Shown: positions 19,350 through 53,912 of the stretch, piece by piece
How positions within the stretch are numbered: position 1 is the stretch's first letter
How the letters are laid out: each line of letters begins with the position of its first letter
Source: an uncultured Candidatus Binatia bacterium
GTDB lineage: Bacteria > Desulfobacterota > Binatia > HRBIN30 > CADEER01
Assembly (NCBI GenBank): GCA_964475125.1
Contig: CAYYWP010000002.1
Coordinates: 2,036-66,035, forward strand
Length of the DNA stretch: 64,000 bases
Direction: 5' to 3'
Notes under the pieces: generated by a model
Told to the model about the DNA's origin: nothing
What the model saw: the letters and a program-made list of their open reading frames with translations, nothing else
Databases searched by the model: none
Made by a program: the position numbers and the translations under genes

Positions 19350-21187
19350 AGAAGTCTGCGGCCCGCAGCACATCCGCACCGCCGGCAGCGCGCGCCGCCC
19401 GCAAGCCGCGGGCGACGCCCAAAGCCTCGAAGACGTCGCGCGCGCGAACCGCGGTGGCGATCGATCCGATCCGCGTCTCGGTGATCGACAACCGCCTCGA
19501 CGCGATCTCGAAGGAGATCGGTCTGACGATGCTGCGGACGTCGCGCTCACCGATCTTTTCCGAGGCGCGCGATTTCGTCACCGGGATCTTCGACGGGCAG
19601 ATGCGACTGGTGGCGCAGACGGCGTACATCCCGGTGCTGATGGGCACGCTGCCGTACGCGATCCGCGGCATCGTCGACACCTTCGGCGACGATATCGAAG
19701 ACGGCGACGTGTTCATCCTCAACGATCCCTACCGCGGCAACAACCATCCGCCGGACATCACGATCGCCAAGCCGGTGTTCTATCGCGGCAGGCTGGAATT
19801 CTGGTCCATCTGCAAGGGCCACCACGCCGACGTCGGGGGCGGAGGCGTGGCCGGCTACAACCCAGGGGCGCGCAGTGTCTACGACGAGTGCACGCGCATT
19901 CCGCCGGCGAAGTTCTACATCGCGGGCAGGCTGAACCGCAGCCTGCTCGACATGTTCCTCAGTAATCTCCGCCTCGGCTTCATCGTCGAGGGCGATTTGC
20001 ACTGCCAGGTCGGCGCGGTGACGATCGGCGCCCGCAACCTCACCGCGTTGCTCGACAAGTACGGCCCCGACGTGCTGCACGCCGCGATCGAGCGCATCTT
20101 CGACGCCTCGGAACAGCAGCTGCGCGCGGCGATCGCGAAAGTGCCTCCAGGCGTGTACCGCGCCGAGCGGCTGATTGATCATGATGGCATCGACAAGAGT
20201 CAGATGAAGCATGTGCGCGTCGCCGTCGAGGTGCGCGGGTCGTCCATTCGCTTCGATTTCACCGGCAGCGATTCGCAGGCCGCGGGCTACATCAACAGCA
20301 CGCTGCCGAACACCGTGTCATCGGCCTATCTCTCGCTGTTTCTCTCGATCGGCTCGGGCCTGCGTTTCAACGAGGGCGCGATGCGCGCCTTGAGCGTCAT
20401 CGCGCCGCCCGGCACCGTGGTGCATGCCTTGGAGCCGGCGCCGGTGGCCGGCTGCACGATTTCGGCGGCGCAATGCATCATCGAGGCGGTGTGGCTCGCA
20501 CTCGCGCAGGCGGTGCCCGAGCAGGTCGACGCGGGCTGGGCGCGCTGGTGCGCGCCGGCGACGATGGGGCTCAATCCGCGCACCGGGCGTCCGTTCGGCG
20601 ATATCCATTTCATGTGCAAGGGCGGTGGCGGGGCCTCGTTCGGTCTCGACGGCTGGGACCACCTGGGCACGGTGGTCTGCGCCGGCGGCTTGCGCGCGCC
20701 GGATCCGGAACTGCACGAACTCGTCAATCCGTACACCGTATTGCAGTACGAGTACTGGCCCGACAGCGCCGGCGCGGGCCAATGGCGCGGCGGCCTGGGC
20801 ACGATCTATCGCTGGCGCGTCGAGACCGACAAGATCGCGGCGGCGAATTTCGGCGGCGGCAATCGCGCCGAAACGGCGCCGTACGGGTTGCAGGGCGGCA
20901 GGTCCGCGCCGCCGCACGAGCTGTTTCTGCGCCAGGGCGACGAAGTCGTCACGGTCGACGCCGAGAGCTTCTACGATCTCGACACCGGTGACGTGTTCGA
21001 GATCTACCAGAGCGGCGGCGGCGGCTACGGCGATCCGCTGGCGCGGCCGGTCGAGAAAGTCCGCGAGGACGTGATCAACGGGGTGGTATCGGTAGACGGC
21101 GCGCGCGGCGACTACGGCGTCGTGATCGATCCGGAGACGCTGCAGGTCGATCGCCTCGCGACGCAGCGCGTGCGCGCGCAGCCATGA
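19346..21187 (+). CDS. hyuB: hydantoinase B / oxoprolinase family subunit
   Basis: AGGAGGGGGG RBS before the ATG. After a 37-aa basic N-terminal extension the sequence is a typical HyuB (DPIRVSVIDNRLDAISKEIG...). 613 aa. Confidence 0.9.
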   Translation: MKKSAARSTSAPPAARAARKPRATPKASKTSRARTAVAIDPIRVSVIDNRLDAISKEIGLTMLRTSRSPIFSEARDFVTGIFDGQMRLVAQTAYIPVLMGTLPYAIRGIVDTFGDDIEDGDVFILNDPYRGNNHPPDITIAKPVFYRGRLEFWSICKGHHADVGGGGVAGYNPGARSVYDECTRIPPAKFYIAGRLNRSLLDMFLSNLRLGFIVEGDLHCQVGAVTIGARNLTALLDKYGPDVLHAAIERIFDASEQQLRAAIAKVPPGVYRAERLIDHDGIDKSQMKHVRVAVEVRGSSIRFDFTGSDSQAAGYINSTLPNTVSSAYLSLFLSIGSGLRFNEGAMRALSVIAPPGTVVHALEPAPVAGCTISAAQCIIEAVWLALAQAVPEQVDAGWARWCAPATMGLNPRTGRPFGDIHFMCKGGGGASFGLDGWDHLGTVVCAGGLRAPDPELHELVNPYTVLQYEYWPDSAGAGQWRGGLGTIYRWRVETDKIAAANFGGGNRAETAPYGLQGGRSAPPHELFLRQGDEVVTVDAESFYDLDTGDVFEIYQSGGGGYGDPLARPVEKVREDVINGVVSVDGARGDYGVVIDPETLQVDRLATQRVRAQP

Positions 21188-31654: not shown

Positions 31655-32449
31655 ATGCCAGCCGAGCGCGCGACGACTCACACCTCCACGGGCCGCGGGC
31701 TCGCCGTGCTCGGCCTGCTGCTGGTGCTGGCCGGCGTCGTCGGCTACTTCGTCGTCGTCTTCCGCCTCGCGGCCTGGTGGCCGTCGGTGCGCAACGCGGC
31801 GCTGCCGAACTGGCTCCTCGTCATCGCCGGCGTGGCCCTCGCGGTCCTCGCGGTGCGCCGAGCGTCGAGCGGTCGCACGGCGAAAGTGCTGCTCGGCGTC
31901 GACCTGGCGCTCGCCGCGCTGTTCGCGGCGATCCTTTACGTCGTGCCCGCCGTCCCCGGCGCCAGCGGACCGGCGATCGGCGCGCCGGCACCAGACTTCG
32001 CGCTCCTCGACCAGAGCGGCAAGACCGTGCGGCTGGCCGACCTGCGGGGCGCGCCGGCGCTGCTCGTCTTCTATCGCGGCCACTGGTGACCCTTCTGCGT
32101 GTCGGAGCTGCAGGGTCTGCAGCTGAGCCTGGAGGAGTTCCGGCGCCGCGGTGTGCGCGTCGTCGGCATGGTCGTCGACCCGGTCGAGACCAACGCCCAG
32201 CTGGCACGCGATGCCGGGCTCGAGTTCACGATCCTCGCCGATCCCGACCTGCACACCATCGACGCGTACGGCCTGCGGCATCGTGAAGGACATGAGGGCC
32301 AGGACATCGCGCTCTCGGCCTCGGTGCTGCTCGACGCCGACGGCACCGTCCGCTGGAGCCACGTGACGCCCAACTTCCGCGTCCGTCCCCTCCCCGGCGA
32401 GATCCTCGCCGCGGTCGACGGGCTGCCGAAGGGGTCGCGAGCAGACTGA
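31655..32449 (+). CDS. membrane-anchored peroxiredoxin/Bcp-like (AhpC/TSA) selenoprotein. The in-frame TGA at 32087-32089 is read as selenocysteine in a UxxC motif.
   Basis: Two ORFs in the same frame (31655-32089 and 32099-32449) are separated only by a TGA. Joined they give three N-terminal TM helices, then APAPDFALLDQSGKTVRLADLRGAPALLVFYRGHW-U-PFCVSELQGL..GVRVVGMVVDPVETNAQLARDAGLEFTILADPDLHTIDAYGL...VLLDADGTVRW. This is colinear with Bcp/PrxQ (FYPKDDTPGCTTE), with UPFC occupying the position of the redox CxxC/peroxidatic Cys. A SECIS-like hairpin follows (next feature). Confidence 0.7.
32107..32123 (+). promoter_or_regulatory. bacterial SECIS-like stem-loop starting 17 nt downstream of the UGA
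   Basis: gcugcag-GGU-cugcagc forms a 7-bp perfect stem with a G/U-containing apical loop (GGUC if the closing pair opens). It resembles the fdhF SECIS apical hairpin (gcagGUCugc) and lies within the 16-37 nt window after the UGA. Confidence 0.55.
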
Positions 32450-32775: not shown

Positions 32776-33207
32776 TCATCGCCGACACGGATCGATCCAG
32801 CGAAGCCCGGGGAAGCGGGCGAAGTCGGCATCGGTCGAGTAGAGAATGTAGCCGCGCTCGACGGCGAGCGTTGCGAGGTGTGCATCCGTGGTCAGGTTGC
32901 CGGCGGTGCCCAATCGCTCGAGGTTGCGACGCAGCGCCGCGAAGTGCCCGTCGGCCGGGTGCGGAACGTGCACATGCGGCACTTGCAGCCAGCCCTCGAT
33001 GCGACCCAGCACATCGTGCACGGCAAGCGGTCGAAGAAGCACCCTTCTGTTGGTCGTGATGCGGATGAAGCCAAGCAGCGTGACCCACGCCAGGCCAACT
33101 CCCTCGGTACCGCTCAGGCAGGCGTCCCACCAGCGTCGCGCCCGCTCGTGCACCGGGGAATCGGAGTTATGCGCGTGAACGAGCACGCTGACGTCGGGCA
33201 GGATCAC
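32776..33207 (-). CDS. vapC: type II toxin VapC (PIN-domain ribonuclease)
   Basis: MILPDVSVLVHAHNSDSPVHERARRWW...TNRRV...NLTTDAHLATLAVERGYILYSTDADFARF is a PIN domain with its acidic residues. It lies immediately downstream of, and overlaps, an RHH antitoxin gene. Confidence 0.8.
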   Translation of the reverse strand: MILPDVSVLVHAHNSDSPVHERARRWWDACLSGTEGVGLAWVTLLGFIRITTNRRVLLRPLAVHDVLGRIEGWLQVPHVHVPHPADGHFAALRRNLERLGTAGNLTTDAHLATLAVERGYILYSTDADFARFPGLRWIDPCRR

Positions 33208-33469
33208 GACCCTTCCGCGCTGCAGGCTGAACGAAGGCCTCGGCTTCCAACTCGTCCGCCAGCTGATTGAGCTTGTCGAGATCGATTCCAGGCCGGAATC
33301 CGAAGGAGTGCGGCACGGTGCGCGGGGCGCGCACCTTCGGTTTGGCGGCCTCGCCCAGGCCGGCGCGGATTGCGCGGTTGACCGCTTCTTTGAACGAGAT
33401 GCCCATCTCGCGCGCCCGTCTGGCGAGCAGCCCCGCGAGGTCGTCGTCCAACGTGAGCGTGGTGCGCAT
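33167..33469 (-). CDS. vapB: type II antitoxin VapB (ribbon-helix-helix)
   Basis: MRTTLTLDDDLAGLLARRAREMGISFKEAVNRAIRAGL is the canonical VapB/RHH N-terminus. The 3' end overlaps the vapC start by 41 nt. Confidence 0.75.
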   Translation of the reverse strand: MRTTLTLDDDLAGLLARRAREMGISFKEAVNRAIRAGLGEAAKPKVRAPRTVPHSFGFRPGIDLDKLNQLADELEAEAFVQPAARKGRDPARRQRARSRA

Positions 33470-35112: not shown

Positions 35113-35225
35113 GCATTATCGGCTGGCGAGACGTGGTCCCGTATTTGACCTCATGCGCGCACCAGACGAAGCGGCTGCCTATCGGCACGCTGGTGACCAA
35201 TCCGGTCACGCGCCACCTGAGTCCC
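35101..35225 (+). repeat. about 125-bp duplicated internal fragment of the LLM oxidoreductase gene at 43760-44803 (gene remnant)
   Basis: gattgacacgcattatcggctggcgagacgtggtcccgtatttgacctcatgcgcgcaccagacgaagcggctgcctatcggcacgctggtgaccaatccggtcacgcgccacc is near-identical to 43850-43975, which encodes MIDTHIGWREVVPYLTLCAHQTKRLRIGTLVTNPVTRH. It lies in the gap between the ArnT-like gene and the cytochrome c gene. Confidence 0.8.
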
Positions 35226-35764
35226 TACTCGTTGCGGAACTCGAGCGCCTCGGGCCCGGGAATCACCCCGGCGGCGACCAGTCCCGCCACCACGCGCCGG
35301 CGCAGCGCGATTACCTGCTCGAGCTTGTGCCGGCGCAGGGCGCCGACCTCGGCCGCGGTGTAGGGCGCGAAGTCCAACGGGAGCTGCGCCTTCCCGTAGG
35401 TCTGCAGCAGCCAGTTGAGCAGCCGCGCCAGCTGCTCGTCGCTCAGGTGCGCCTGCGCGACATTGGGCACCTGCACCAGGTAGGCGCGGCCCTCGGCGGT
35501 GTGTGCGAAGTAGCCGACGCGATCCTTGAGGATGGGGATCTCGTGCGCCGAATAGCCGAGGTGGCCGTGGCACCCCTGGCAGTGGCGCGCATAGTCCTCG
35601 ACCGCGCCCTGGATGCGCGGCACGGGAGCGCCGCTGCGCTCGATCGGCAGGTCGGGAACGGGCGCGGCGGCATCACCCGCCTGCGCCGCAACGGCACCGG
35701 CGTAACCGAGCAGGGCCGCGGCCAGGCGCACCACCCGCGCACACGCGGCGCCCGCCCGCCGCAC
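35225..35764 (-). CDS. mono-haem c-type cytochrome (putative electron acceptor for the amine dehydrogenase)
   Basis: Signal peptide, then a single CQGCHG haem-binding motif. 179 aa. It is the last gene in the mau-like operon. Confidence 0.7.
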   Translation of the reverse strand: MRRAGAACARVVRLAAALLGYAGAVAAQAGDAAAPVPDLPIERSGAPVPRIQGAVEDYARHCQGCHGHLGYSAHEIPILKDRVGYFAHTAEGRAYLVQVPNVAQAHLSDEQLARLLNWLLQTYGKAQLPLDFAPYTAAEVGALRRHKLEQVIALRRRVVAGLVAAGVIPGPEALEFRNE

Positions 35765-35777
35765 CCGCCAACCCTCC

Positions 35778-36329
35778 TCAGACCTCGCCGATCAGCGCGC
35801 CGGATGAGCAGTGGTACACCATGCTCGGGGCGCCCAAGCACCAGATGATGTCGTTGTTGAGCTGCGGCCGGTAGGTCGGCATCTCGCCGGCGGTGCCGAG
35901 GCAGAAGCAGCGGCCGCACGAATCCTTGCCGCAGCAGTCGCGATAGGCGAGCAGGTAGAGCTTGCCGTCGTCCGGGTTGAGACAGCTGCCGATCCAGGAG
36001 GTCGGCGAGGGCACCGAGCCCGGCGGGCAGGTGGCCGGACCGCCGCCGCAGCAGGAGCACAAGTAGCCATCGGCGGCGCAGTAGCGCCAGTAGTTGCACG
36101 CTCGCGGGTCGGTGGTCTGCGCCTTGACCGCCGCGGCCCACTCGCGCGCGGCCTGGGCCCCGCTGGGCTCCGCCGCATGCGCCTTGCGGCTGACCGGCAG
36201 CACCGGCAGCACGGCCGCGCCGGCCAGCGTGGCCCCGAGTACGGACAGGAAGTTGCGCCGCGACACGCGCTGCGCGGCGCGCCGGCTCACCCGTTCGAAC
36301 ACCTTGTCCAGCAACTCCAGCTGCACCAT
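35778..36329 (-). CDS. mauA: methylamine (or aromatic amine) dehydrogenase light chain, TTQ-bearing subunit
   Basis: Tat signal SRRNFLSVLGATLAGAAV. Mature region ACNYWRYCAADGYLCSCCGGGPATCPPGSVPSPTSWIGSCLNPDDGKLYLLAYRDCCGKDSCGRCFCLGT...YRPQLNNDIIWCLGAPSMVYHCSSG is colinear with Paracoccus MauA, including the 12 Cys and the two Trp. Confidence 0.9.
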   Translation of the reverse strand: MVQLELLDKVFERVSRRAAQRVSRRNFLSVLGATLAGAAVLPVLPVSRKAHAAEPSGAQAAREWAAAVKAQTTDPRACNYWRYCAADGYLCSCCGGGPATCPPGSVPSPTSWIGSCLNPDDGKLYLLAYRDCCGKDSCGRCFCLGTAGEMPTYRPQLNNDIIWCLGAPSMVYHCSSGALIGEV

Positions 36330-36366
36330 CGTGTCCTCCCGACACCCAGGACGCGGCGCGGCGGCC

Positions 36367-37005
36367 TCACACCGCAGCCTTGTCGGCCGGCGCGCTCTCC
36401 TGCGGCCCGCCGTGCCGGCGCGCGCGCAGGTACGCCTGAATACTGCCGTAACCCGTTTCCTTGGCGATCGCCAAGCTCTCCAGATGCTCGCGGCTGTTCA
36501 CCAGCCCTTTGGCGCGGATCACGCCATCCTCGTCGATCAGGACCGCATAGGGCAGCTTGCCGACACGGAAGGCCATGCCCACCTGCGGCGAGTTGACGTA
36601 GGCCATGCCCTGCAAGCCATGTTGGGCGATCATCGCGCGCTGCTCGGCCAGGTCGCCATCGCCGACCAGCACCACGTCCAGCCGCTCGCCCTGGGCGAAG
36701 GAGCGGGCGATCGGCAGCAGCTTCTTGCACACCGGACAGGTCGGCGCCACGAACAGCAACAGGCGGCTGCGCCCGCTCTCGTTCGGCCCGCCCAGCCGCA
36801 GCGCCCGCGCGTCGATCGTGCTGATGCGCAGATCGGGCGCCATCTCGCCGACCTCGGGGCCGTGATCGGTGGTCAGCGCCCCCATCGGCGCCACGCGCTC
36901 GTGCAGAATGCCGACCTGCCGCACCATGCCGAACAGGATGGCGGCCAGCGCGACCACCACGACCCACAGCACGAGGTTGGAGACCACCAGGGCTTCGTAA
37001 GACAT
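36367..37005 (-). CDS. mauD: methylamine utilisation protein MauD (thioredoxin-like, CPVC)
   Basis: N-terminal TM helix, then LLLFVAPTCPVCKKLLPIARSF...AYVNSPQVGMAFRVGKLPYAVLIDEDGVIRAKGL. Start set at the internal ATG (MSYEALVV); the longer ORF overlaps mauE. Confidence 0.85.
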   Translation of the reverse strand: MSYEALVVSNLVLWVVVVALAAILFGMVRQVGILHERVAPMGALTTDHGPEVGEMAPDLRISTIDARALRLGGPNESGRSRLLLFVAPTCPVCKKLLPIARSFAQGERLDVVLVGDGDLAEQRAMIAQHGLQGMAYVNSPQVGMAFRVGKLPYAVLIDEDGVIRAKGLVNSREHLESLAIAKETGYGSIQAYLRARRHGGPQESAPADKAAV

Positions 37006-37598
37006 CACGGCGTGTTCCAGTCGCGCACGAGCTGGGCCTGCGCGGATTGGCCGGGGCGCATCGCGGCCAGCTCTTCCAGGGTCGGCGGCGGCCTGCGTGT
37101 CACATAGCCGGTGGCCAGATAGACAAAGAACAGGCTGACCGCGCCCGCGGCGATCGTCACCCAGTCGGTGCCTGCGAGCGCGCGCGTCCCCGCCGGCAGC
37201 GTGCAGAGGAGCGCCAGCGCCATGAGCAGCGCATTGCGCAACACCAGCCACCAGGACAGCGTCTGCTTGAGCGCAGAAGCGAAGCAGCCGCAGTCGATAT
37301 CGGACCGCCCGCGCGCGAGGTTGATGCCGATGGCGGCCGCGAACGCCGCCAGCAGCAGCAGCAGGCACGCCCCAGCGGGCGTGCGCAGCGGACCCGCCAA
37401 CACCGCCAACGCGAGCGCCAGCTCCAGCGGCGGCAGCGCCCAGCTCGCCGGCGCGACCAGGGCAGCTGGCAGCAGGCGGAAGTTGCGCACCACGCCAGGC
37501 AGCTCGGTCCAGGCCGCCATCTTGGTCACGGCCGCGCCGGCGAAGACCAGAAACAGCGCCAGCGCCGCGGTGTGCTGCAGGGCGGGGTCGATCATGCT
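37005..37598 (-). CDS. mauE: methylamine utilisation protein MauE (integral membrane)
   Basis: Four or five TM helices (ALALFLVFAGAAVTKM, ALPPLELALALAVLAG, LLLLLAAFAAAIGINLARG with DCGCF). Typical MauE size and position between mauB and mauD. Start at the internal ATG (MIDPALQ). Confidence 0.75.
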   Translation of the reverse strand, partial: SMIDPALQHTAALALFLVFAGAAVTKMAAWTELPGVVRNFRLLPAALVAPASWALPPLELALALAVLAGPLRTPAGACLLLLLAAFAAAIGINLARGRSDIDCGCFASALKQTLSWWLVLRNALLMALALLCTLPAGTRALAGTDWVTIAAGAVSLFFVYLATGYVTRRPPPTLEELAAMRPGQSAQAQLVRDWNTP

Positions 37599-37632
37599 CG
37601 CGTCCGCGCGTAGAGACAGGAGCGCCGGCAGC

Positions 37633-38814
37633 TCACATGCCGTCCACGTAGAGCAGGTAGGGCGAGATGCCCAGCGGCTCGATCGCACCCCGGGCTTTGC
37701 CCGTCTTCACGTCGTACACCACCAGGCTGGGCTTCTCGGTGAGCGTATAGAGCTGGGTCGCCTCGAGGTCCGGGCTCACCGCCAGCGACACCGCGTGATC
37801 CTTGAGCGTAATGCGGCTCACCCGTTTCTTCGCCGCGACGTCGAACACCCACACCTCATCGCCAGCCTGTTTGTGCGTCCAGCGCGCGCCCTCGTGCATC
37901 AGCACGAACAGCCGCTGGCCGGCGGAGTGGAACCCCGACATCTGCCAGCCGCCTGGCCGCCAGTGCTCGGCCTTGTCCTCGGCGGTGAGCAAGGACCACT
38001 GGGGCAGCATCTTCGCTTTCTCCTGCGACAGATCCACCGGGTAGACGTTGCCCTCGTAGCTGATGAAGTAGACGGTTTGGCGTTGCTTGTCGAAGGCCGA
38101 ATGCTCGAAGACCGGATCGTTCTCGGCGTCGAAGAACGGGCCGTCGCGCACCACCGCGGCCTTGAGGGTGGCGTCGAAGCTCACCGTGGCCAGCGTGCCG
38201 TCCGAGCATACCGAGGAGAAGCGGTTGCCCGCGGAGGGGAAGATCAGGCCGCAGCCGGGGATCTCGATCTCGCCCTTGTAGCGCTTCTCCTTCGCGTCGA
38301 TCACGCTCACCGTGGTCGCCGGCGCCAGGTTGTAGGACAGCAGGTAGCGCCCGTCGGGCGTGATGTCGGCGTTCGGCTTCTTGGTTCCGACCAGGAAGCG
38401 GCCCTTGGGCATGGTCACTTCCGCGGTGATATTCAGCGTCTGTGGATCGAAGAACGTGACCAGATCGGTGCGATCGCCGCGATAGCCCTTCGACCAGTAG
38501 GTGTCGAACGTGAACAGCTGGGAGTGATCGGGGGCGAGCGCGAAATTGGCACAGTAGCCGGCGTTCATCATGCCCACAACGTCGATCGTGTCGGCGTCGA
38601 CCACCCAGACCTTGCTCGACACCAGATACGGCAACACCGGTTCGAGCACGTAGACGCGGTGCGGCCCGGCCGGCGGGAGCTTGGCGACCTGATGGACTTC
38701 GGCGCCCTGCAGCTTGGCGGTATCGGGCAGGTCGTCCTTGGCGACGCAGCGCGACAGCGGAAGCGATGCGGCCAGTGCCGCGGACAGCGCCGCGCAGAGC
38801 GATGCGACCTTCAT
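37633..38814 (-). CDS. mauB: methylamine (amine) dehydrogenase heavy chain, 7-bladed beta-propeller
   Basis: Signal peptide MKVASLCAALSAALAASLP. Then ...RVYVLEPVLPYLVSSKVWVVDADT...GYCANFALAPDHSQLF...TVYFISYEGNVYPVDL is colinear with MauB heavy chains. Confidence 0.85.
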   Translation of the reverse strand: MKVASLCAALSAALAASLPLSRCVAKDDLPDTAKLQGAEVHQVAKLPPAGPHRVYVLEPVLPYLVSSKVWVVDADTIDVVGMMNAGYCANFALAPDHSQLFTFDTYWSKGYRGDRTDLVTFFDPQTLNITAEVTMPKGRFLVGTKKPNADITPDGRYLLSYNLAPATTVSVIDAKEKRYKGEIEIPGCGLIFPSAGNRFSSVCSDGTLATVSFDATLKAAVVRDGPFFDAENDPVFEHSAFDKQRQTVYFISYEGNVYPVDLSQEKAKMLPQWSLLTAEDKAEHWRPGGWQMSGFHSAGQRLFVLMHEGARWTHKQAGDEVWVFDVAAKKRVSRITLKDHAVSLAVSPDLEATQLYTLTEKPSLVVYDVKTGKARGAIEPLGISPYLLYVDGM

Positions 38815-44978: not shown

Positions 44979-47099
44979 ATGAAGCGAGTCGGGGTCGACG
45001 TCGGCGGCACCTTCACCGACCTGATCTACGTCGACGACGAGACGGGTGAGATCCGCGTCCACAAGCTACCCACCACGCCGCACGATCCGTCGCGCGGTAC
45101 CGTGCAAGGGATCGAGGAGCTCTCGAAGGCCGCGGGGCAGAGCCCCGCGGCGCTCGACCAGGTGTTCCACGGCACGACGATCGCGACCAACATCGTCATC
45201 GAGCACTCGGGCGCCAAGGTCGGGTTGATCACCACCGAGGGCTACCGGGACATCCTCCACATCGCCCGGCACAAGAAGCCGTTCAACTTTTCAATCTACC
45301 AGGACTTGCCGTGGCAACGGTACCCGATCGTGCGGCGGCGCTACCGGTTGACGGTGCCGGAGCGCATCACCAAGGACGGCTCGGTGCTGGTGCCGCTCGA
45401 CGAGGAGCGGGCGCGCGAGCAGGTCAGGAAACTGAAGCAGGCCGGCGTCGAGGCCGTCGCGGTCTGCTTCCTCTTCTCGTTCTTGAACCCGCAGCACGAG
45501 CAGCGGGTGGCGGCGATCCTGCGCGAGGAGTTCCCCGAGGCCTTTCTGTCCGTGTCCTCCGAGGTGCTGCCGCAATACCGCGAGTACGAGCGCTTCTCGA
45601 CCGTCTGCCTCAACGCCTACGTCGGTCCCAAGGTGGCGACCTACGTGCGGCGCCTCGAATCGGAGCTGCGCGGGCTCGGAGTGAAGACGGGGGTCCACCT
45701 GATGACCTCGGCGAGCGGCGTGTCGACGGCGGAGGCGGCGACGGCACGGCCGGTCAACCTGCTCATGTCGGGTCCGGTCGCCGGCGTCGTCGGCGGGATC
45801 TGGGCCGGGAAACAGGCGGGCTACGAAAACGTGATCACGCTCGACGTCGGCGGCACCTCGGCCGACATCGGGCTGGCGCAGGAAGGTCGGCTGCGCATGA
45901 AGCACCTGCTCGACACCAAGGTCGGGCCCTATCAGGCGATGATTCCGATGGTCGACGTCGACACGATCGGCGCCGGCGGCGGCTCGATCGCCTACGTCGA
46001 CCAGGGCGGCCTGTACCGCGTCGGGCCGCGCTCGGCGGGTGCCGACCCGGGTCCGGCGGCCTACGGGCGCGGCGGCACGGAGGCAACCGCGACGGACGCG
46101 ATGGTCAACCTCGGATGGCTCTCGCCGGACGACTTCCTCGGCGGCGGCATGCGGCTGCGGCCCGAGCTGGCGCGCCGGGTCTTCCAGGAGGGCCCGGGAG
46201 CCGCGCTCGGGATGTCGGTCGAGGAGGCGTCGATGGGCGCCGTGCAGATCCTCACCCACTCGATGGTGCAGGCGATCGAACAGAACTCGGTGCGCAAGGG
46301 CTTCGACCCGCGCGATTTCGTGCTCGTCGCCGAGGGCGGGGCGGGCCCCCTCTTCGCCGCCCAGATCGCGCTCGAGGTGGGGACGCCACACGTGCTCGTC
46401 CCGCCCTATCCCGGGGTGACCGCGGCGATGGGGCTGCTCGCCACCGACATGGTCTACGAGTACGCGATGACGACGTACCAGCGCCTCTCGGCGCTCGACG
46501 CGCCCGCGTTGCAGCTCGCCTTCGAGCAGCTCGAGCAGCGCGCCATGGCCCAGCTCCGGGCCGATGGGGTCCCCACCGAGCGGAGCGTGCTCCAGCGCGT
46601 GGCCGACTGCCGCTACTTCGGCCAGGGCTACGAGCTCCGCGTCGAGGCCGGCTCCGGCGCGATCGACCACGACTGGGTGGAGCGGCTGCGGGCGGACTTC
46701 CATCAGATCCACGAGCGCGAGTATTCGCGCCGCTTCGAAGAGGCGGATATCGAGATCCCGAACATCCGCGTCCGCGGCGTCGGTCTCCAGCCGCCACTGG
46801 AGATTTCCGAGATCGAGCCGGGCAGCGACTCGGCCGAGGCGGCGCGCACCCGCGAGGGCGAGGCGTGGTTCCGCGTCGACGGCGCGCTGCGCCAAGTGCG
46901 CACGCGCTACTACGACCGCGCCAAGCTGCGGGCCGGCAACCGCCTGCACGGGCCGGCGATCATCAATCAGTACGATTCGACGACGGTGATCCCGCCGGGG
47001 CTCTCCGCGCATGTAGACCGCTATGGCAATATCGTGATCACCATCGGTTCCGCCGCGGGTGTCGAGGCGGGCGCGGTGGGGACGGAGGCGAAGACATGA
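44979..47099 (+). CDS. hyuA: hydantoinase A / oxoprolinase family, second copy
   Basis: MKRVGVDVGGTFTDLIYVDDETGEIRVHKLPTTPHDP...ITLDVGGTSADI. 706 aa, paralogous to 17241-19349. Confidence 0.9.
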   Translation: MKRVGVDVGGTFTDLIYVDDETGEIRVHKLPTTPHDPSRGTVQGIEELSKAAGQSPAALDQVFHGTTIATNIVIEHSGAKVGLITTEGYRDILHIARHKKPFNFSIYQDLPWQRYPIVRRRYRLTVPERITKDGSVLVPLDEERAREQVRKLKQAGVEAVAVCFLFSFLNPQHEQRVAAILREEFPEAFLSVSSEVLPQYREYERFSTVCLNAYVGPKVATYVRRLESELRGLGVKTGVHLMTSASGVSTAEAATARPVNLLMSGPVAGVVGGIWAGKQAGYENVITLDVGGTSADIGLAQEGRLRMKHLLDTKVGPYQAMIPMVDVDTIGAGGGSIAYVDQGGLYRVGPRSAGADPGPAAYGRGGTEATATDAMVNLGWLSPDDFLGGGMRLRPELARRVFQEGPGAALGMSVEEASMGAVQILTHSMVQAIEQNSVRKGFDPRDFVLVAEGGAGPLFAAQIALEVGTPHVLVPPYPGVTAAMGLLATDMVYEYAMTTYQRLSALDAPALQLAFEQLEQRAMAQLRADGVPTERSVLQRVADCRYFGQGYELRVEAGSGAIDHDWVERLRADFHQIHEREYSRRFEEADIEIPNIRVRGVGLQPPLEISEIEPGSDSAEAARTREGEAWFRVDGALRQVRTRYYDRAKLRAGNRLHGPAIINQYDSTTVIPPGLSAHVDRYGNIVITIGSAAGVEAGAVGTEAKT

Positions 47100-49012
47100 G
47101 CATGACGGAATACGTGGCCGGCCGCCTGCCGGGGCCGCCCACCCGCAAGCGCGTCGAGGTCGACCCGGTCACCCTGCGCGTGCTCGGTGGCGCATTCAAC
47201 GCGGTCGCCAAGGAGATGGCGGGCGTGCTCTTCCGCATGAGCTACTCCTCGATCATCCGCGAGTCGGAGGATATCGGCGCCGGCATCTTCGATGCCGAGG
47301 GGCGCGAGTTCTGCGAGTCCGACTCGTCGCCGATGCACATCGGCTCGCTGCCCTGGTACATCCGCGGTTTCCTGCGCACGCTCGGCGGCGCCGGGAACAT
47401 CGCGGAGGGGGACGTGATCGTCCACAACCACCCCTACTTCGGCGCCTCCCACACGCCGGACCTCGGCATGGCCGTGCCGATCTTTGACGCCGGCGAGCTC
47501 CTCGGCTTCGCCGCCGTGACCGCGCACCTGCTCGACGTCGGGGGCTCGTTCCCGGGCGTGAACGCCGACGCGTTCGACGTGTACGCCGAGGCCAAGCTGT
47601 ACAACGGCCTGCGCTGGTACCGCCGCGGGGAGCTGAATCAGGACCTCGACCGGATGATCTTCGAGAATACCCGTACGGAGACGATGAACCGCGGCGACGT
47701 GAAGGCCATGCTCGCCGCCTGCCAGCTCGGGCGCGACCGCTTCCTGCGCCTCGTCCAGCGCTACGGCGCCGACGTGGTGATGAGCGCGGCGTATGACTGG
47801 ATGGATTACTCCGAGCGGATGCTGCGGGCCGAGATCGCGAAGGTTCCCGACGGGGTCTACGAGGCGCCGACGGGTTGGCTCGACGACGACGCCCGCAACC
47901 GCGGCGTTCGCCTCAAGGTGGCGACCAAAGTGATCGTCAAGGGCGACGAGGTCATCATCGACCTGACCGGCTCCAATGACGAGGTGCCGACCGGCTACAA
48001 CGTGCCCTTCGAAGGCTCGGTCCTCGTCGGCGCCTATTTCGCCGTGCGCACCATCCTGCTCGACGAGGCCACGTTCCCGGAGCACGTGCCGCAGAACGAA
48101 GGCTGCTTCCGGCCGGTGACGGTGATCGCGCCGAAAGGGTCCATCTACAACCCGAATTTCCCCCGCGCCTGCTTCTCGCGCTTCTGCCAGGTGCAGCGCA
48201 TCGTCGACAACACCATCCTGGCGCTGGCGGACGCGGTGCCGGGCCAGGTCACCGGCGGCAACTCGGCCGGCACGAACTTCTACTGCTACTCCGGCTTCCT
48301 CGAGCAGAAGGGCGAGTACTGGATCTACCTCGAGGTCAACGAGGGCTCCTACGGCGGCCGCCACGGGAAGGACGGGCTCGACTCCGTCGACAACCTGATG
48401 GCGAACACGCGCAACAACCCGATCGAAGAGCTGGACATGCGCTTCCCGGTGCGCTGCGAGCAGTACGAGCTGCGCCCCGAGGCGGCGGCACCCGGGAAGT
48501 GGCGCGGCGGCATCGGCATCGTGAGGCGAAACCGGATGCTCGTCGACGGAACGTGCTCGTCGGAGGGCGAGCGCATGCACGACGCGCCGCGCGGCATCTT
48601 CGGCGGCTGGGACGGGCTCGTAGCCTCGTGCCGGAAGAACCCGGACACGGCACGGGAGGAACGCCTGGAGGCGAAGGTGACGGGGATCCCCTTACGGGCG
48701 GGAGAGCTGATCGAGATCCGCGTGCCGAGCGGGGCCGCGTATGGCAACCCGCTCGAGCGGGTGCCCGAGCTGGTGCGCGAGGACGTGCTGGACGACTTCA
48801 CCACGATCGAGCTCGCCCGCGACGCCTACGGCGTCGTGTTCAAGGACCCGCACACGCTCGAGATCGATGTGCAGGCGACGGCGCGGCTGCGCGCCGAGCT
48901 GGCCGCGAAGCCGCGGTACAGTTCGCTCACGACCTACTACCAGGAGCGCGGGTTGCGGCGCTGCAACCCGCCGACCTCGATCGCCGGTAACAAGGAGTTC
49001 GGGCTCGAGTGA
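47096..49012 (+). CDS. hyuB: hydantoinase B / oxoprolinase family, second copy
   Basis: ATG overlaps the hyuA stop (ATGA). MSMTEYVAGRLPGPPTRKRVEVDPVTLRVLGGAFNAVAKEMAGVLFRMSYSSIIRESEDIGAGIFD is the HyuB N-terminus. The ORF-track entry 45311-49012 is an out-of-frame upstream extension. Confidence 0.9.
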   Translation: MSMTEYVAGRLPGPPTRKRVEVDPVTLRVLGGAFNAVAKEMAGVLFRMSYSSIIRESEDIGAGIFDAEGREFCESDSSPMHIGSLPWYIRGFLRTLGGAGNIAEGDVIVHNHPYFGASHTPDLGMAVPIFDAGELLGFAAVTAHLLDVGGSFPGVNADAFDVYAEAKLYNGLRWYRRGELNQDLDRMIFENTRTETMNRGDVKAMLAACQLGRDRFLRLVQRYGADVVMSAAYDWMDYSERMLRAEIAKVPDGVYEAPTGWLDDDARNRGVRLKVATKVIVKGDEVIIDLTGSNDEVPTGYNVPFEGSVLVGAYFAVRTILLDEATFPEHVPQNEGCFRPVTVIAPKGSIYNPNFPRACFSRFCQVQRIVDNTILALADAVPGQVTGGNSAGTNFYCYSGFLEQKGEYWIYLEVNEGSYGGRHGKDGLDSVDNLMANTRNNPIEELDMRFPVRCEQYELRPEAAAPGKWRGGIGIVRRNRMLVDGTCSSEGERMHDAPRGIFGGWDGLVASCRKNPDTAREERLEAKVTGIPLRAGELIEIRVPSGAAYGNPLERVPELVREDVLDDFTTIELARDAYGVVFKDPHTLEIDVQATARLRAELAAKPRYSSLTTYYQERGLRRCNPPTSIAGNKEFGLE

Positions 49013-49061
49013 GCGAACGCTTGACAGGATCACGTGCGCAGACGGTGAAAGGAGTCCAGTC

Positions 49062-51443
49062 GTGAAATACATCGGGCAACCCATTCCGGCCTTGAATAAC
49101 CGTATCCTCGCCGCCGGCCAGGCGACCTTCGTTGCCGATGTCCCGCTGGTCAATACCGCTCATCTGACCATGCTCCGCAGCGCCCATGCCCATGCGCGGA
49201 TTCGGTCGATCGACACCAGTCGGGCCCGCCAGCTCCCCGGCGTCCTGCTCGTGCTGACGGGAGCGGACCTGCGCGCGGTGATGCCTCCCACGCCCTTGGC
49301 GGCGGATCCAGCCGTGCTCGGCGGCAACACGGTCACCGTGTATCCCCTGGCGGTCGATCGGGTGCGCTACGTCGGCGAGCCGGTCGCCGCCGTGGTCGCG
49401 GACGACAAGTTCGCCGCCTACGCCGCCTTGGAGCTGATCGATGTCGACTACGAGCCCTTGCCGGTGGTCACCGACGCGGTCAAGGCGTTGGAGCCGGGCA
49501 GCCCGCTGGTCGAGCCGGACTGGGGCAGTAACATCCTGCTGCACAAGTCCTTCACCCGCGGCGACTTCGCCAGTGCGCTGCAGCGCGCCGATGGCGTGTT
49601 GCGAGGCACGGTCAAGGCGCACCGCTATGGGGCGGTGCCGATCGAGCCGCGGGCCTACGCGGCCTCCTATCATCCCTATCTCGACGAGCTGACGGTGTGG
49701 GCGTCGACGCAGATGCCACACTCGGTACGCGGCTACATCGCGATCGTGTTGGGCATGAGCGAGACCAGCGTGCGCGTGATCCAGCCGCATGTCGGCGGCA
49801 GCTTCGGTCTCAAGGTGCCGCCGTTCCCGGAGGAAATCCTGGTGGCGTACTTCAGCCGGGCGTTGCGGCGGCCGGTGCGGTGGATCGAAGAGCGCGGCGA
49901 GCATCTCGCGGTGTCCTCGCATTCGCGCGAGGAAACGCTGTCCTACACCGCCGGCTACCGCAGCGACGGGACCGTCATCGCGCTGGACGTGCGCGTGGTG
50001 GCCGACGTCGGCGCCCCGTCGGCGGTCGGCGGCTGGCCGATGTCGTTCGTCTCCGCGTTCGTCATCCCCGGCCCGTACAAGATCGACGACTGCAACGTGG
50101 AGCTCTATTCGGTGGTGACCAACAAGGCCCCGTGGACCCCCTATCGCACCTTCGGCAAGGACGCGGCGAATTACGTCATGGACCGGATCATGGACAAGGT
50201 GGCGCGGGCGTCGGGCCGTGACCGCGCCGAGGTTCGTCCGCGCAACTTCGTCCCGCCCGATGCGTTTCCGTTCCGCCAGGTCTCCGGCGCGGTGCTCGAC
50301 AGCGGGAACTACGGCGCGGTGTGGGATCGCCTGCTCGAGGCGATCGATTACCGCGGCTTCGCCAAGCGGCAACAAGAAGCCAGGCAGAGCGGGCGATACC
50401 TGGGGATCGGCATCACCTTCGAGCTCACGCCGGAAGGCGGTGCGATCCCGCACTCCCGGTTGATCCAGGGCTACGACGGAACGACCGTGCGGGTGAGCCC
50501 CGAGGGCCGCGTCACGGTGCTCACCGGCGTGACGTCGCCCGGCTCCGGGAACGAGACCGGCATCGCGCAGATCGTCGCCGACGAGTTGGGCGTCGACCTC
50601 GCCGAGGTGAAGGTCATCCAGGGCGATACGCAGTCGTGCCCCTTCGGGTTGGGGAACGGCAGCTCGCGCAGCGTGATGATGGGCGGCGGCGCCGGCGCGC
50701 TGGCCGCCCAAGACCTGCGCGAAAAACTCCTCACCGTGGCGGGAAAGATGTTGGAGGTGGCGCCGCAGGACTTGGACGGCGAAGGCGGGGTCATTCAGGT
50801 GCGAGGCGCGCCACAGCGCAAGGTCACCATCGCCCAGGTGGCGGCGGAGATTTACCGCCACACGTACGGGCCGGCGGCGGAGGGGGTCGAGCCGGGCCTC
50901 GAGGTGACGCGTTACAGCCGCATCGGCAATCTCCACCATCAGCCGGAGAAGCACGATGGCCATTTCAGCATGTATCCCACCTGGCCGAACGGGGCCTGCG
51001 GGGTCATCGTCGAGGTCGATCGCGACACCGGACTCGTCAAGCTGCTGCGCTGCGTGTTCGTGCACGACTGCGGGACGGTCATCAACCCATTGCTGGTCGA
51101 GGCCAACGTGCACGGATCCTTGGCGCAGGCATTCGGTGGCGCGCTGTACGAACGGCACGTCTATGACGAGGCCGGGCAGTACCAGACCGCCACGTTGATG
51201 GACTATACGCTACCGACTGCCGTCGAGCTTCCGAGCTTTGAGATGGCGCACCTCTGCACTCCCTCGCCGTTTACCGGCCTCGGCACCAAGGGCGCCGGGG
51301 AGTGCGGCATGAGCGCCCCGATCACCGCCCTGATCGGCGCGGTCGAGAACGCGCTGGCCGACTTCAACGTCGTCCTCGACGAGACCCCCGTCACGCCCGA
51401 CCGCGTCTGGAAGGCGATCCAGGACGGGATGGCGAAGGCGTAA
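49062..51443 (+). CDS. xanthine dehydrogenase / CoxL-family molybdopterin-binding large subunit
   Basis: GTG start 7 nt after a GAAAGGAG RBS. a/b-hammerhead N-terminus IGQPIPALNNRILAAGQATFVADVPLVNTAHLTMLRSAHAHARIRSIDTSRARQLPGVLLVLTGADL. Mo-binding domains (GGSFGLK, GTKGAGECG). 793 aa. No CoxS or CoxM genes are adjacent. Confidence 0.85.
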   Translation: MKYIGQPIPALNNRILAAGQATFVADVPLVNTAHLTMLRSAHAHARIRSIDTSRARQLPGVLLVLTGADLRAVMPPTPLAADPAVLGGNTVTVYPLAVDRVRYVGEPVAAVVADDKFAAYAALELIDVDYEPLPVVTDAVKALEPGSPLVEPDWGSNILLHKSFTRGDFASALQRADGVLRGTVKAHRYGAVPIEPRAYAASYHPYLDELTVWASTQMPHSVRGYIAIVLGMSETSVRVIQPHVGGSFGLKVPPFPEEILVAYFSRALRRPVRWIEERGEHLAVSSHSREETLSYTAGYRSDGTVIALDVRVVADVGAPSAVGGWPMSFVSAFVIPGPYKIDDCNVELYSVVTNKAPWTPYRTFGKDAANYVMDRIMDKVARASGRDRAEVRPRNFVPPDAFPFRQVSGAVLDSGNYGAVWDRLLEAIDYRGFAKRQQEARQSGRYLGIGITFELTPEGGAIPHSRLIQGYDGTTVRVSPEGRVTVLTGVTSPGSGNETGIAQIVADELGVDLAEVKVIQGDTQSCPFGLGNGSSRSVMMGGGAGALAAQDLREKLLTVAGKMLEVAPQDLDGEGGVIQVRGAPQRKVTIAQVAAEIYRHTYGPAAEGVEPGLEVTRYSRIGNLHHQPEKHDGHFSMYPTWPNGACGVIVEVDRDTGLVKLLRCVFVHDCGTVINPLLVEANVHGSLAQAFGGALYERHVYDEAGQYQTATLMDYTLPTAVELPSFEMAHLCTPSPFTGLGTKGAGECGMSAPITALIGAVENALADFNVVLDETPVTPDRVWKAIQDGMAKA

Positions 51444-51500
51444 CGACCATATCCGGACGGTACGGACGGGCTCGCCCCAGCGCGCGCCGGGCACGGCACC

Positions 51501-53912
51501 ATGAGCTATATCGGACAACGCATTCCGTCCTTCACCAACCGGGTGCTGGCCGCCGGCCAGGGCACCTTCGTCGGCGACGTTCCGCTGGCGAACGCGACCG
51601 CGCTCGCGATCTTGCGCAGCCCGCATGCCCATGCGCGCGTTCGTGCCATCGACACGCGGCGCGCGCGCCAACTCCCCGGAGTGCTCGCGGTCCTGACCGG
51701 CGCCGACGTGCGCGCCGCGATGGGGCCGACGCGCTGGGCGGCCGATCCGGCGGATATGGGGGGCCACTCGCTCCCGGCCTACCCCTTGGCCGGGGAGCGC
51801 GTCCGGTTCGTGGGGGAGGCCGTGGCGGCGGTGGTCGCCGAGGACAAGTACACCGCCTACTGGGCGCTCGGTCAGATCGACGTGGACTACGAGCCCCTGC
51901 CCGCGGTCACCGACGCGGTCAAGGCGCTCGAGCCCGACAGCCCGCTCGTGGAGCCGAGCTGGGGGACCAACGTCATGCTGCAGAAGTCGTTCACGCGCGG
52001 CGACTTCGCGGCGGCGCTGACGCGCGCCGACGGGGTGGTGAAAGGGACCGTCGAGGCGCACCGCTACGCGCCGGTGCCGCTCGAAGCGCGTGGATACGCG
52101 GCGGCATACGATCCCTACCAGGACAAGCTGACGATCTGGTCGTCGACGCAGATGCCGCACTCGTTGCGCCAGTTCGTCGCCGAGACATTGCGCCTCCGCG
52201 ACACCGACATCCGCGTCATTCAACCGCACGTCGGCGGCGGCTTCGGCCTCAAGATCGCGCCGTTTCCGGAGGAGATTCTGGTCGCCCATCTCAGCCGCAC
52301 GCTGCAGCGGCCGGTGCGGTGGCTCGAAGAACGCAGCGAGCACCTGATGGCGGGAGGCCACGCGCGCGAGGAAACGCTGTCGTTCACCGCCGGGTATCGC
52401 AACGACGGGACGGTCATCGCGCTCGACGTCGATATCGTCGCCGACGTCGGTGCGCCGGCGGGATTGTGCGGTTGGATACAATCGTTCGTGACCGCCTTCT
52501 GCGTGCCGGGCGCCTACAAGATCGACGACTGCAACGTCCGGATGCGCACGGTGGTGACCAATAAGGGGCCCTGGAGCGGCTACCGCGCCATGGGCAAGGA
52601 AGCCGCCTCGTATCTGATGGACCGCATCATGGACAAGGTCGCGCGGGCGCTCGGCCGGGATCGGGCCGAGGTCCGGATGCGCAACTTCGTCCCGGTCGAT
52701 GCGTTCCCCTTCCGTCAAGTCGGCGGCGGCGTCCTCGACAGCGGCAATTACCCCGCGGTGCTGAACCGGATGCTCGACGCGATCGACTACACGCACTTCC
52801 CGCAGCAGCAGCAGCAGGCCCGGAACGAGGGGAAATACCTCGGCCTCGGCATTGCCTTCGAGCTCACGCCGGAAGGTGGGGCGGTCCCGAGCTCGTTTCT
52901 CCAAGGCTACGACGGCACGACCGTCCGCGTCAGTCCCGAGGGTCGCGTCACGGTGCTCACCGGGGTGACGTCACCCGGCTCGGGGAACGAAACCGGGATC
53001 GCCCAGATCGTGGCAGACGAGCTGGGAGTGGACATCGACGAGGTGCGCGTGATCCAGGGCGATACCGACGCCTGTCCGTTTGGCCTCGGGAACTACAGCT
53101 CGCGTAGCATCATGATGGGCGGCGGCGCGGCGCTGCTGGCCGCCCGCGACCTGCGCGGCAAGATTCTTGCGGTGGCCGGCAAGATGCTGGAGGTGGCGCC
53201 GCACGACTTGGACATCGCCCGTGGGGTCATTCAGGTGCACGGCGCGCCGGAACGGAAGGTGACCGTCAGGGACGTCGCCGCCGAGGTCTACCGCCATACC
53301 TACGGCCCAGCCGCGGAAGGCGTCGAGCCAGGCCTCGAGGCGAGCCGTTACAGCCGCATCGGCAACGTGTATCACCAGCCCGAGAAACAGGACGGCAAGT
53401 TCAGCATTTACCCGACCTGGCCGAATGGGGCGTGCGGCGTCGTGGTGGAAGTCGACCGCGACACCGGACGCGTCACGCTCCTGCGTTGTGCCTTCGTGCA
53501 CGACTGCGGCACCATCATCAACCCGCTGCTCGTCGAGGCCAACCTGCACGGCGGATTGGCGCAGGGATTGGGCGGCGCCGTCTACGAACGCCACGTGTAC
53601 GACGACGCGGGACAGCTCCAAACCGCAACGCTGATGGACTACACCATGCCCACCGCGGTCGACCTGCCGCGCTTCGAGCTCGGCCACCATGAGACGCCCT
53701 CGCCGTACACCAACCTCGGCACCAAGGGGGCGGGGGAGTCGGCGATCGTCGCGCCGCTCGCGGCGGTGGTCGGCGCGGTCGAGAACGCGCTGTCCGACTT
53801 CAACGTCGTCATCGACGAAACGCCGGTGACGCCCGATCGCGTGTGGAAGGCGATTCGGGAAGGGATGGCGACGGCATCGCGTCGTGCGCCGGTGCACCCG
53901 CAATCGTCGTAG
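51501..53912 (+). CDS. xanthine dehydrogenase / CoxL-family molybdopterin-binding large subunit, tandem paralog
   Basis: MSYIGQRIPSFTNRVLAAGQGTFVGDVPLANATALAILRSPHAHARVRAIDTRRARQLPGVLAVLTGADV.... 803 aa, about 70% identical to the preceding gene. Confidence 0.85.
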   Translation: MSYIGQRIPSFTNRVLAAGQGTFVGDVPLANATALAILRSPHAHARVRAIDTRRARQLPGVLAVLTGADVRAAMGPTRWAADPADMGGHSLPAYPLAGERVRFVGEAVAAVVAEDKYTAYWALGQIDVDYEPLPAVTDAVKALEPDSPLVEPSWGTNVMLQKSFTRGDFAAALTRADGVVKGTVEAHRYAPVPLEARGYAAAYDPYQDKLTIWSSTQMPHSLRQFVAETLRLRDTDIRVIQPHVGGGFGLKIAPFPEEILVAHLSRTLQRPVRWLEERSEHLMAGGHAREETLSFTAGYRNDGTVIALDVDIVADVGAPAGLCGWIQSFVTAFCVPGAYKIDDCNVRMRTVVTNKGPWSGYRAMGKEAASYLMDRIMDKVARALGRDRAEVRMRNFVPVDAFPFRQVGGGVLDSGNYPAVLNRMLDAIDYTHFPQQQQQARNEGKYLGLGIAFELTPEGGAVPSSFLQGYDGTTVRVSPEGRVTVLTGVTSPGSGNETGIAQIVADELGVDIDEVRVIQGDTDACPFGLGNYSSRSIMMGGGAALLAARDLRGKILAVAGKMLEVAPHDLDIARGVIQVHGAPERKVTVRDVAAEVYRHTYGPAAEGVEPGLEASRYSRIGNVYHQPEKQDGKFSIYPTWPNGACGVVVEVDRDTGRVTLLRCAFVHDCGTIINPLLVEANLHGGLAQGLGGAVYERHVYDDAGQLQTATLMDYTMPTAVDLPRFELGHHETPSPYTNLGTKGAGESAIVAPLAAVVGAVENALSDFNVVIDETPVTPDRVWKAIREGMATASRRAPVHPQSS

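Follow-up and report, generated by a model that had tools for sequence, protein, structure and literature searches.

A predicted selenoprotein of the Prx-like UxxC family with a three-helix membrane anchor in a Candidatus Binatia genome

Prx-like selenoproteins, in which a peroxiredoxin-type domain (PF00578) carries a thioredoxin-like UxxC motif (U being selenocysteine, or Sec), have been in the literature since 2004-2005. They counted as a known family, with 22 sequences, in the 2005 study of the Sargasso Sea, and the Global Ocean Sampling (GOS) metagenomes contributed 225 selenoproteins and 2,740 Cys homologues under the name "Prx-like 1". A Prx-like thiol:disulfide oxidoreductase family has likewise been predicted in Geobacter, Syntrophus and Desulfotalea, and a 2026 review describes the Prx-like thiol:disulfide oxidoreductase, with its UxxC or UxxU motifs, as "predicted with high confidence". 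The published family descriptions that we found make no mention of a membrane anchor, of Candidatus Binatia or of soil lineages, and a search for literature linking Binatia or Binatota to selenocysteine returned nothing relevant. Here we describe a gene at positions 31655-32449 (+ strand) of a 64,000-nucleotide stretch of contig CAYYWP010000002.1 ("the window"), from an uncultured Candidatus Binatia bacterium (assembly GCA_964475125.1). In our assessment it is very probably a genuine Sec-encoding gene, its product being a peroxiredoxin-fold protein with a predicted membrane anchor. Its predicted membership of the Prx-like thiol:disulfide oxidoreductase ("Prx-like 1") family, of which WP_010940744.1 is a reference member, is well supported by both described features, PF00578 and UxxC. 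As in that family, an AhpC/TSA domain is combined with a predicted Sec in a UxxC that replaces the TxxC of peroxiredoxins (Prx), Cys homologues are widespread, and a candidate Sec insertion sequence (SECIS) follows the UGA.

The reading frame opens with the ATG at 31655, and the first open reading frame (ORF) ends, in translation, with ...LLVFYRGHW at the TGA at 32087-32089. Past this TGA the same frame goes on as PFCVSELQGLQL... (given as PFCVSELQGLQLS... in the full translation of the post-TGA frame) up to a TGA stop at 32447-32449; the gene as a whole has 264 codons and a stop, with the UGA as codon 145. The mechanical ORF list contains two ORFs at this place, 31655-32089 and 32099-32449, the second of them restarted at the first GTG (32099). 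Database gene calls split the gene in the same manner, into ORFs of 144 and 116 aa, and the split pairs at orthologous loci are arranged alike. A preliminary description of this DNA had proposed that the two ORFs share one frame and are parted only by the TGA at 32087-32089, and both the sequence and its translation confirm this. With U written as C, the 264-residue product matches Pfam AhpC-TSA (PF00578) from residue 108 to residue 234 (104 bits, cut-off 26; E=5.2e-30) and, as a second match, Redoxin (PF08534; E=3.2e-22). Because the AhpC-TSA match covers residues 108-234, a single domain spans the TGA, and the continuous AhpC/TSA domain that had been expected on read-through is indeed there. 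This catalytic domain of peroxiredoxin fold occupies 31976-32356 (+), with the UGA inside it, and is recognised by both Pfam models and by the fold matches described below. The redox motif U-P-F-C (TGA CCC TTC TGC) lies at 32087-32098 (+), where TGA 32087-32089 is the predicted Sec codon. TGA ends most of the predicted genes of the window; since it is the normal stop of these genes, the code is not reassigned. No hairpin in SECIS register follows the true stop at 32447-32449 (+). The segment 31655-32449 is one gene, wrongly split by gene callers.

Comparison with relatives shows how widely the interrupted form is kept. A protein search with the read-through product recovered about 40 database clusters of ~145-aa proteins, all of them terminating at ...FYRGHW, together with full-length Cys relatives: P0036 (261 aa, FYRGSWCPYC, with the same N-terminal hydrophobic region), P0042 and P0043. 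These three and two genomic loci, L029 and L034, are continuous single ORFs with the motif FYRG-x-W-C-P-x-C. In such homologues the first Cys of CxxC sits exactly where the window gene has TGA, so that the earlier placement of the TGA at the first position of the redox motif (FYRGHW-U-PFC) holds, and in none of the Cys forms are the two halves separate genes. When the C-terminal half was used as the query, the best 120 matches were all ~113-aa fragments (at least 57% identity). No close full-length Cys orthologue was among them and, unlike the Prx-like 1 family at large, the Binatia-like clade shows no close Cys orthologue within this set; judging from these sequences, the clade has the gene in interrupted form throughout.

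The same picture emerges from the DNA of related loci. The nearest ones in the genome collection belong to metagenome-assembled genomes (MAGs) labelled Candidatus Binatia or "delta proteobacterium", with 57-77% identity. FYRGxW is followed directly by TGA in 15 related genome loci (from Binatia-like MAGs, Acidobacteriota, Polyangium, Myxococcota and one member of the Phycisphaerae) and by TGC in two other Phycisphaerae loci. The DNA pattern F-Y-R-G-x-W-TGA-P-x-C occurs at no fewer than 120 metagenome loci (at least 120), and every listed match continues in frame into ...SVD/SPQ.... Read in the same frame, the codons 3' of the TGA show purifying selection (dN/dS, the ratio of nonsynonymous to synonymous change, is 0.2-0.45 for most pairs), and conservation at the protein level is seen for both halves of the gene. 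The P, F and C codons that lie between the TGA and the putative GTG start differ among close orthologues by third-position changes only. The GTG of the second ORF is replaced by GTC, GCC, CTT or CTG in several orthologues; as it is not kept, there is no conserved start from which the second half could be translated separately. One Binatia MAG contig (L007) carries a second copy of the gene at 17660-18270 (+), 7.7 kb downstream of the first. This copy keeps FYRGHW-TGA and the hairpin described below (with a GGG loop; 35 bits with the covariance model), but it reads PLQ in place of PFC and soon loses the frame. By its sequence it looks like a decaying duplicate.

The candidate SECIS is a hairpin within the coding sequence at 32106-32124 (+), with an 8-bp stem (AGCUGCAG/CUGCAGCU) and the apical loop GGU at 32114-32116, which begins 24 nt after the UGA. 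It codes for part of the helix peptide ELQGLQL. The preliminary description reported a 7-bp hairpin 17 nt past the UGA: the hairpin is present and a 7-bp core does start 17 nt after the UGA, but the stem is really 8 bp long. Folded in isolation it reaches -12.6 kcal/mol, a stability matched by 1 shuffled sequence in 200. Published criteria for bacterial SECIS elements (bSECIS; PMC13188914) ask for a loop of 3-9 nt with a G in its first two positions, a stem of 4-16 bp, a UGA-to-loop distance of 16-37 nt and a minimum free energy of -7.5 kcal/mol or lower; with its GGU loop, 8 bp, 24-nt spacing and the energy just given, the window hairpin passes all four. A close described counterpart is the SECIS of E. 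coli fdhF, also a coding-sequence hairpin just 3' of a Sec-UGA with a G-G-U apical loop, and the proposed likeness to it was upheld: the cores are nearly identical (UGCAGGUCUGCA in E. coli, read from NC_000913, versus UGCAGGGUCUGCA here, with one extra G here). The two differ in that the fdhF loop lies 17-18 nt after the UGA rather than 24 nt, and in that the window stem is perfect, with no bulged U, unlike the E. coli SECIS.

Within the Binatia-like clade the hairpin is invariant. Elsewhere in the family it is formed by other letters over other peptides: GCUUGCC-GGUCU-GGCGAGC over ELAGLAS in L017, GCUUGGG-GGA-CUCAGGC over ELGGLRR in L021, GCUUGAG-GGU-CUCAAGC over ELEGLKR in L136 and CUCCGA-GGUC-UCGGAG over ELRGLGA in L051. 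Other subfamilies use other registers (for example AACUCCG-AGUUG-CGGAGUU at spacing 16), and it appears from these comparisons that the SECIS has been repeatedly rebuilt on the same helix-1 codons. In an ungapped, in-register alignment of 13 sequences, 93% of cells pair and double changes are found in 3 of the 8 pairs, against at most 44% pairing in slid controls. A covariance model built from these 13 sequences recovered 58 sites; in the resulting alignment, which was fitted to the model and is biased towards it (a point that belongs with the adverse ones gathered below), 86% of cells pair, double changes occur in 7 of 8 pairs and none of 500 shuffles reaches the observed values. A stricter test admitted contiguous stems only and applied the four published bSECIS criteria. 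A qualifying hairpin then follows 83 of 128 distinct Sec-UGA sites (65%; median -8.4 kcal/mol), compared with 4-14% at seven control offsets within these genes and one of five Cys forms. Had the hairpin been missing from TGA orthologues, the selenoprotein reading would have suffered; it is conserved in them, with compensatory changes. Among the metagenome loci L084-L203, in the 12-40 nt past each TGA, each FYRGxW-U-PxC subfamily has a hairpin register and loop of its own, the commonest loops being AGUUG/AGUUA at spacing 16, GGU/GGA at spacing 20 and GGU at spacing 24.

Several observations weigh against Sec insertion at this locus. The 2026 review states that no family member has been biochemically characterised. 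Considered in a 71-nt or 44-nt context, the hairpin has an energy that is unexceptional for DNA of 68% G+C; as fold energy in context is not significant, it is conservation, not stability, that constitutes the evidence. A scan of the window with Rfam at the gathering threshold gave no match. Among Binatia-like members the stem is spelled by the most frequent codons for L-Q-G-L-Q, which makes RNA constraint and peptide constraint inseparable within the clade, and the evidence from covariation therefore comes only from the wider family. One of the two Phycisphaerae homologues with TGC, L034, has a hairpin at 479-530 (+) whose 7-bp stem, spacing of 24 and energy of -10.5 kcal/mol lie within the bSECIS limits; it may be the relic of a SECIS in a gene that switched from Sec to Cys, or may be due to chance. 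As to the decoding machinery, a Pfam scan of essentially all coding ORFs found no selA, selB or selD in the 64-kb window, and ARAGORN found no tRNA in it. None of the fetched Binatia-like loci contains selA, selB, selD or a tRNA-Sec, and none of the 34 tRNAs that ARAGORN detected in 2 Mb of fetched loci is a tRNA-Sec. A scan of the window for further TGA-interrupted genes gave ordinary gene junctions only, and ten related loci (~200 kb) held nothing convincing of the kind.

All loci were also searched by tblastn, with approximate E. coli SelD and SelA sequences as queries. A SelA-like match in L104 was rejected, as it belongs to a DgaE-family lyase. In L130, a locus of another lineage, a selD gene (75-1166, - strand; TIGR00476, 371 bits) has an in-frame TGA at HGAG-TGA-ACK, and SelD itself would be a selenoprotein there. 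This selD lies ~3 kb from a Sec-containing Prx-like gene (FYRGHWUPYC), a distant member of the family, and the proximity gives indirect support, at the level of gene arrangement, for Sec use in the family.

Three other explanations for the TGA need to be weighed against a Sec codon. If it were a real stop, the locus would be either a pseudogene or two genes, namely a small membrane protein and a 116-aa Prx fragment that starts at GTG 32099. This is how gene callers divide the locus in every assembly seen, and the explanation would also account for the lack of Sec machinery in the DNA examined; a truly decaying copy does exist in the relative L007 (at ~18.07 kb). Yet the same TGA codon is found in at least 120 independent sequences from several phyla, and purifying selection acts on both halves. 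The P-F-C codons ahead of the GTG are kept as amino acids while their third positions vary, the GTG is no start codon in several orthologues, the split would part strand beta-1 from the catalytic helix and lose the first redox residue, and the Cys homologues are single ORFs. We regard a real stop as very improbable. Still less credit can be given to a sequencing or assembly error for TGC or TGT. A single base change would suffice for it, and the assembly is of the metagenome type, but the identical sequence is present in an independent assembly (Logan ERR13655530) and all orthologues have TGA, so that an error is refuted in practice and its probability is negligible.

The remaining explanation accepts read-through and denies Sec: near-cognate tRNAs would insert Trp or Cys at the UGA, and the hairpin would be a generic stimulator of read-through or a by-product of the peptide ELQGLQL. 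Here the preferred codons of the conserved peptide in the Binatia-like stem are of some weight, as selection on the RNA is unneeded there, and so is the fact that no Sec machinery was seen within the window of this genome. Across subfamilies, however, the peptide varies and the pairing is kept, with non-preferred codons in use (CUU paired with AAG or AGG), and the G-G/U signature of the loop and a spacing of 16-25 nt are retained in nearly all members, as SelB binding would lead one to expect. The near identity of the core to the E. coli fdhF SECIS tells against it too, as do the redox Cys found at this position in homologues (a classic Sec/Cys pair) and the family member that adjoins a Sec-containing selD. 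Insertion of Trp or Cys thus seems only marginally less improbable than a real stop, and Sec at codon 145 is by a wide measure the reading that we prefer.

What kind of active centre the Sec would belong to can be judged from the fold. The Cys homologue P0036 was modelled (AlphaFold; predicted local distance difference test score, pLDDT, 85) as a stand-in for the window protein, and in its model three N-terminal helices are followed by a compact domain. Among solved structures this domain is matched best by Bcp4 (3hjp), BcpB (5epf), PrxQ and AhpE (4x0x), with target-normalised TM-scores of 0.83-0.88; Foldseek E-values of the model against PrxQ/BCP/AhpE structures go down to 4e-12. At the sequence level the Prx-like protein 2ywn is matched with E=5e-13, and in the alignment to it the Prx pattern P-x-x-x-T-x-x-C corresponds to R-G-H-W-U-P-F-C. 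Sec thereby takes the place of the Prx Thr and the second Cys that of the peroxidatic Cys, while the Prx Pro has become Arg and the catalytic Arg has become Ser. The canonical Prx active site (PxxxTxxC with the catalytic Arg) is accordingly absent from this alignment, the position of the peroxidatic Cys alone being kept, and since Thr, Arg and Pro are all replaced the protein is not a canonical Prx. The active centre is, on this alignment-based prediction, a thioredoxin-like UxxC on a Prx fold and not a Bcp-type site. The preliminary description had aligned the motif to FYPKDDTPGC of Bcp: the Prx fold that this implied stands, but the register does not, as Sec falls on the Prx Thr and the peroxidatic Cys is matched by the second Cys instead. 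No NCBIfam model reaches its own cut-off with the window protein; among the Prx models, Bcp scores 58 bits against 140, PrxQ 41 against 260 and AhpC 23 against 272.

Three groups of described proteins are close enough for a comparison. PrxQ/BCP and AhpE peroxiredoxins have the same fold, and the second Cys of UPFC falls on their peroxidatic Cys; they differ in the active-site Pro, Thr and Arg, for which the window protein has Arg, Sec and Ser, and in that the window protein has a three-helix membrane domain. The ResA, CcmG (DsbE) and TlpA proteins resemble it in another way, as they combine a thioredoxin-superfamily domain with a W-C-x-x-C at the start of helix 1 and a membrane tether, the catalytic domain here being likewise predicted to lie outside; there is also sequence similarity to ResA (E ~1e-12 in a search of the PDB). 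Unlike the window protein, they are anchored by one helix, carry a motif with Cys alone and are tied to cytochrome c maturation. The NCBIfam cut-offs are missed for ResA (52.5 against 170), TlpA (19.8 against 230) and DsbE (18.4 against 123), Pfam scans of the window ORFs found no ccm, res, CcdA or DsbD genes nearby, and the best fold matches of the P0036 model are Prx, not ResA. The SelL-related redox proteins (NF040769), finally, have a Prx-like domain with the redox motif in the same place and are the second-best NCBIfam match, at 55 bits against a cut-off of 120, a score that leaves the window protein outside this group. The SelL motif is UxxU, as opposed to the UxxC of the window protein.

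Upstream of the catalytic domain, a hydropathy scan predicts an N-terminal membrane domain at 31706-31942 (+) with three transmembrane (TM) helices, at 31706-31762 (residues 18-36), 31799-31855 (residues 49-67) and 31886-31942 (residues 78-96), all on the + strand. The anchor that had been proposed earlier is thus borne out as three hydrophobic helices, and three N-terminal helices are present in the AlphaFold 2 (AF2) model of the Cys homologue P0036 as well. Loop 1 carries the motif P-x-V-R-N-x-A-x-P-N-W, with near-invariant columns at R46, N47, P51, N52 and W53 in 41 orthologues, and loop 2 is rich in Arg and Lys. Averaged over the 41 orthologues, Lys and Arg number 6.2 in the N-terminus and loop 2 and 2.2 in loop 1 and the linker after TM3. 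From this skew and the positive-inside rule it follows that the N-terminus should be cytoplasmic and the catalytic domain outside; the catalytic domain is accordingly predicted to face the outside of the cytoplasmic membrane. The preliminary description called membrane-anchored Prx-like selenoproteins uncommon, which the sample contradicts: in a sample of 120 Sec forms whose upstream ORF is complete, about 45 carry two to four N-terminal hydrophobic helices.

These features suggest how the protein might be made and what it might do. SelB and Sec-tRNA(Sec), recruited by the hairpin at 32106-32124, would read the UGA at 32087-32089 as Sec, and the product would have three N-terminal TM helices followed by a peroxiredoxin-fold domain with a U-P-F-C centre. 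The selenolate and the resolving Cys would cycle through a selenenylsulfide, with the protein acting outside the membrane as a tethered selenol/thiol oxidoreductase. Its substrates could be disulfides or (lipid) hydroperoxides, and a thiol donor could bring about its re-reduction; a CcdA/DsbD-type gene was not among the neighbours in the Pfam scans of the window ORFs. An outward-facing, membrane-tethered selenol/thiol oxidoreductase is the most likely function, as predicted from motif, fold and charge distribution.

The surroundings of the gene offer little guidance to its role. Upstream is a beta-oxidation cluster (two acyl-CoA ligases, an acyl-CoA dehydrogenase, a thiolase and a 3-hydroxyacyl-CoA dehydrogenase/enoyl-CoA hydratase), the last gene of which ends at 31543. 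Immediately downstream, on the other strand, are a PIN-domain toxin pair and then a PMT-type glycosyltransferase. The pair spans 32776-33469 (-) and consists of a 143-aa PIN-domain (VapC-like) ORF preceded and overlapped by a 100-aa ORF with no family match, an arrangement that probably represents a toxin-antitoxin pair. Flanking genes are different in every orthologous locus examined, and given these unrelated neighbours the gene is a stand-alone one. Farther along, a homologue of the methylamine dehydrogenase heavy chain (PF06433, E=1.5e-71) and, next after it, a membrane protein of the MauE family (PF07291) occupy 37005-38814 (-); the ORFs that come directly downstream (35225-36967) include none recognisable as MauD or the light chain. 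A functional link between the selenoprotein gene and these mau-like genes was considered and rejected: they are on the opposite strand and ~4.5 kb off, the toxin-antitoxin pair and the glycosyltransferase lie between, and they are absent from the orthologous loci. Other parts of the window contain two very long ORFs (4119-13888, +; 1700 and 1593 aa) of unusual composition, with a second-position G+C of 0.57-0.61, the first with a weak RHS-repeat match and the second with no Pfam match. There are also two separate hydantoinase/oxoprolinase A+B gene pairs (17241-21187 and 44979-49012, +). After the second pair come genes for two molybdopterin subunits of the xanthine dehydrogenase family (48741-53912), the first of which has its start within the end of the hydantoinase B frame.

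The finding is correct yet unsurprising, the family having been predicted some twenty years ago, and it leaves the understanding of Sec decoding and of the chemistry of the family unchanged. It is modestly new in the lineage, in how common and how well conserved the three-helix anchor is, and in the absence of close Cys orthologues in the clade. It has a practical side for annotation: this gene and dozens of its orthologues are deposited as two truncated ORFs ("hypothetical protein / peroxiredoxin"); neither product is right, and neither contains the catalytic residue. For the biology of the organisms concerned, it means that the lineage nearest Candidatus Binatia appears to use selenium, and that the membrane-anchored form makes up about one third of this selenoprotein family in the sampled metagenome contigs, many of which come from soil. 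One might go further, tentatively, and propose that the three-helix FYRGHW-U-PFC proteins are a distinct, undescribed, outward-facing subfamily without a close Binatia-like Cys counterpart, that they constitute the first evidence for Sec decoding in Candidatus Binatia (Binatota), and that they present a selenol at the side of the bilayer to lipid hydroperoxides or envelope disulfides. We hold this to be possible, though on the unlikely side; if it were true, the role of the subfamily would differ from the soluble Prx-like function assumed so far.

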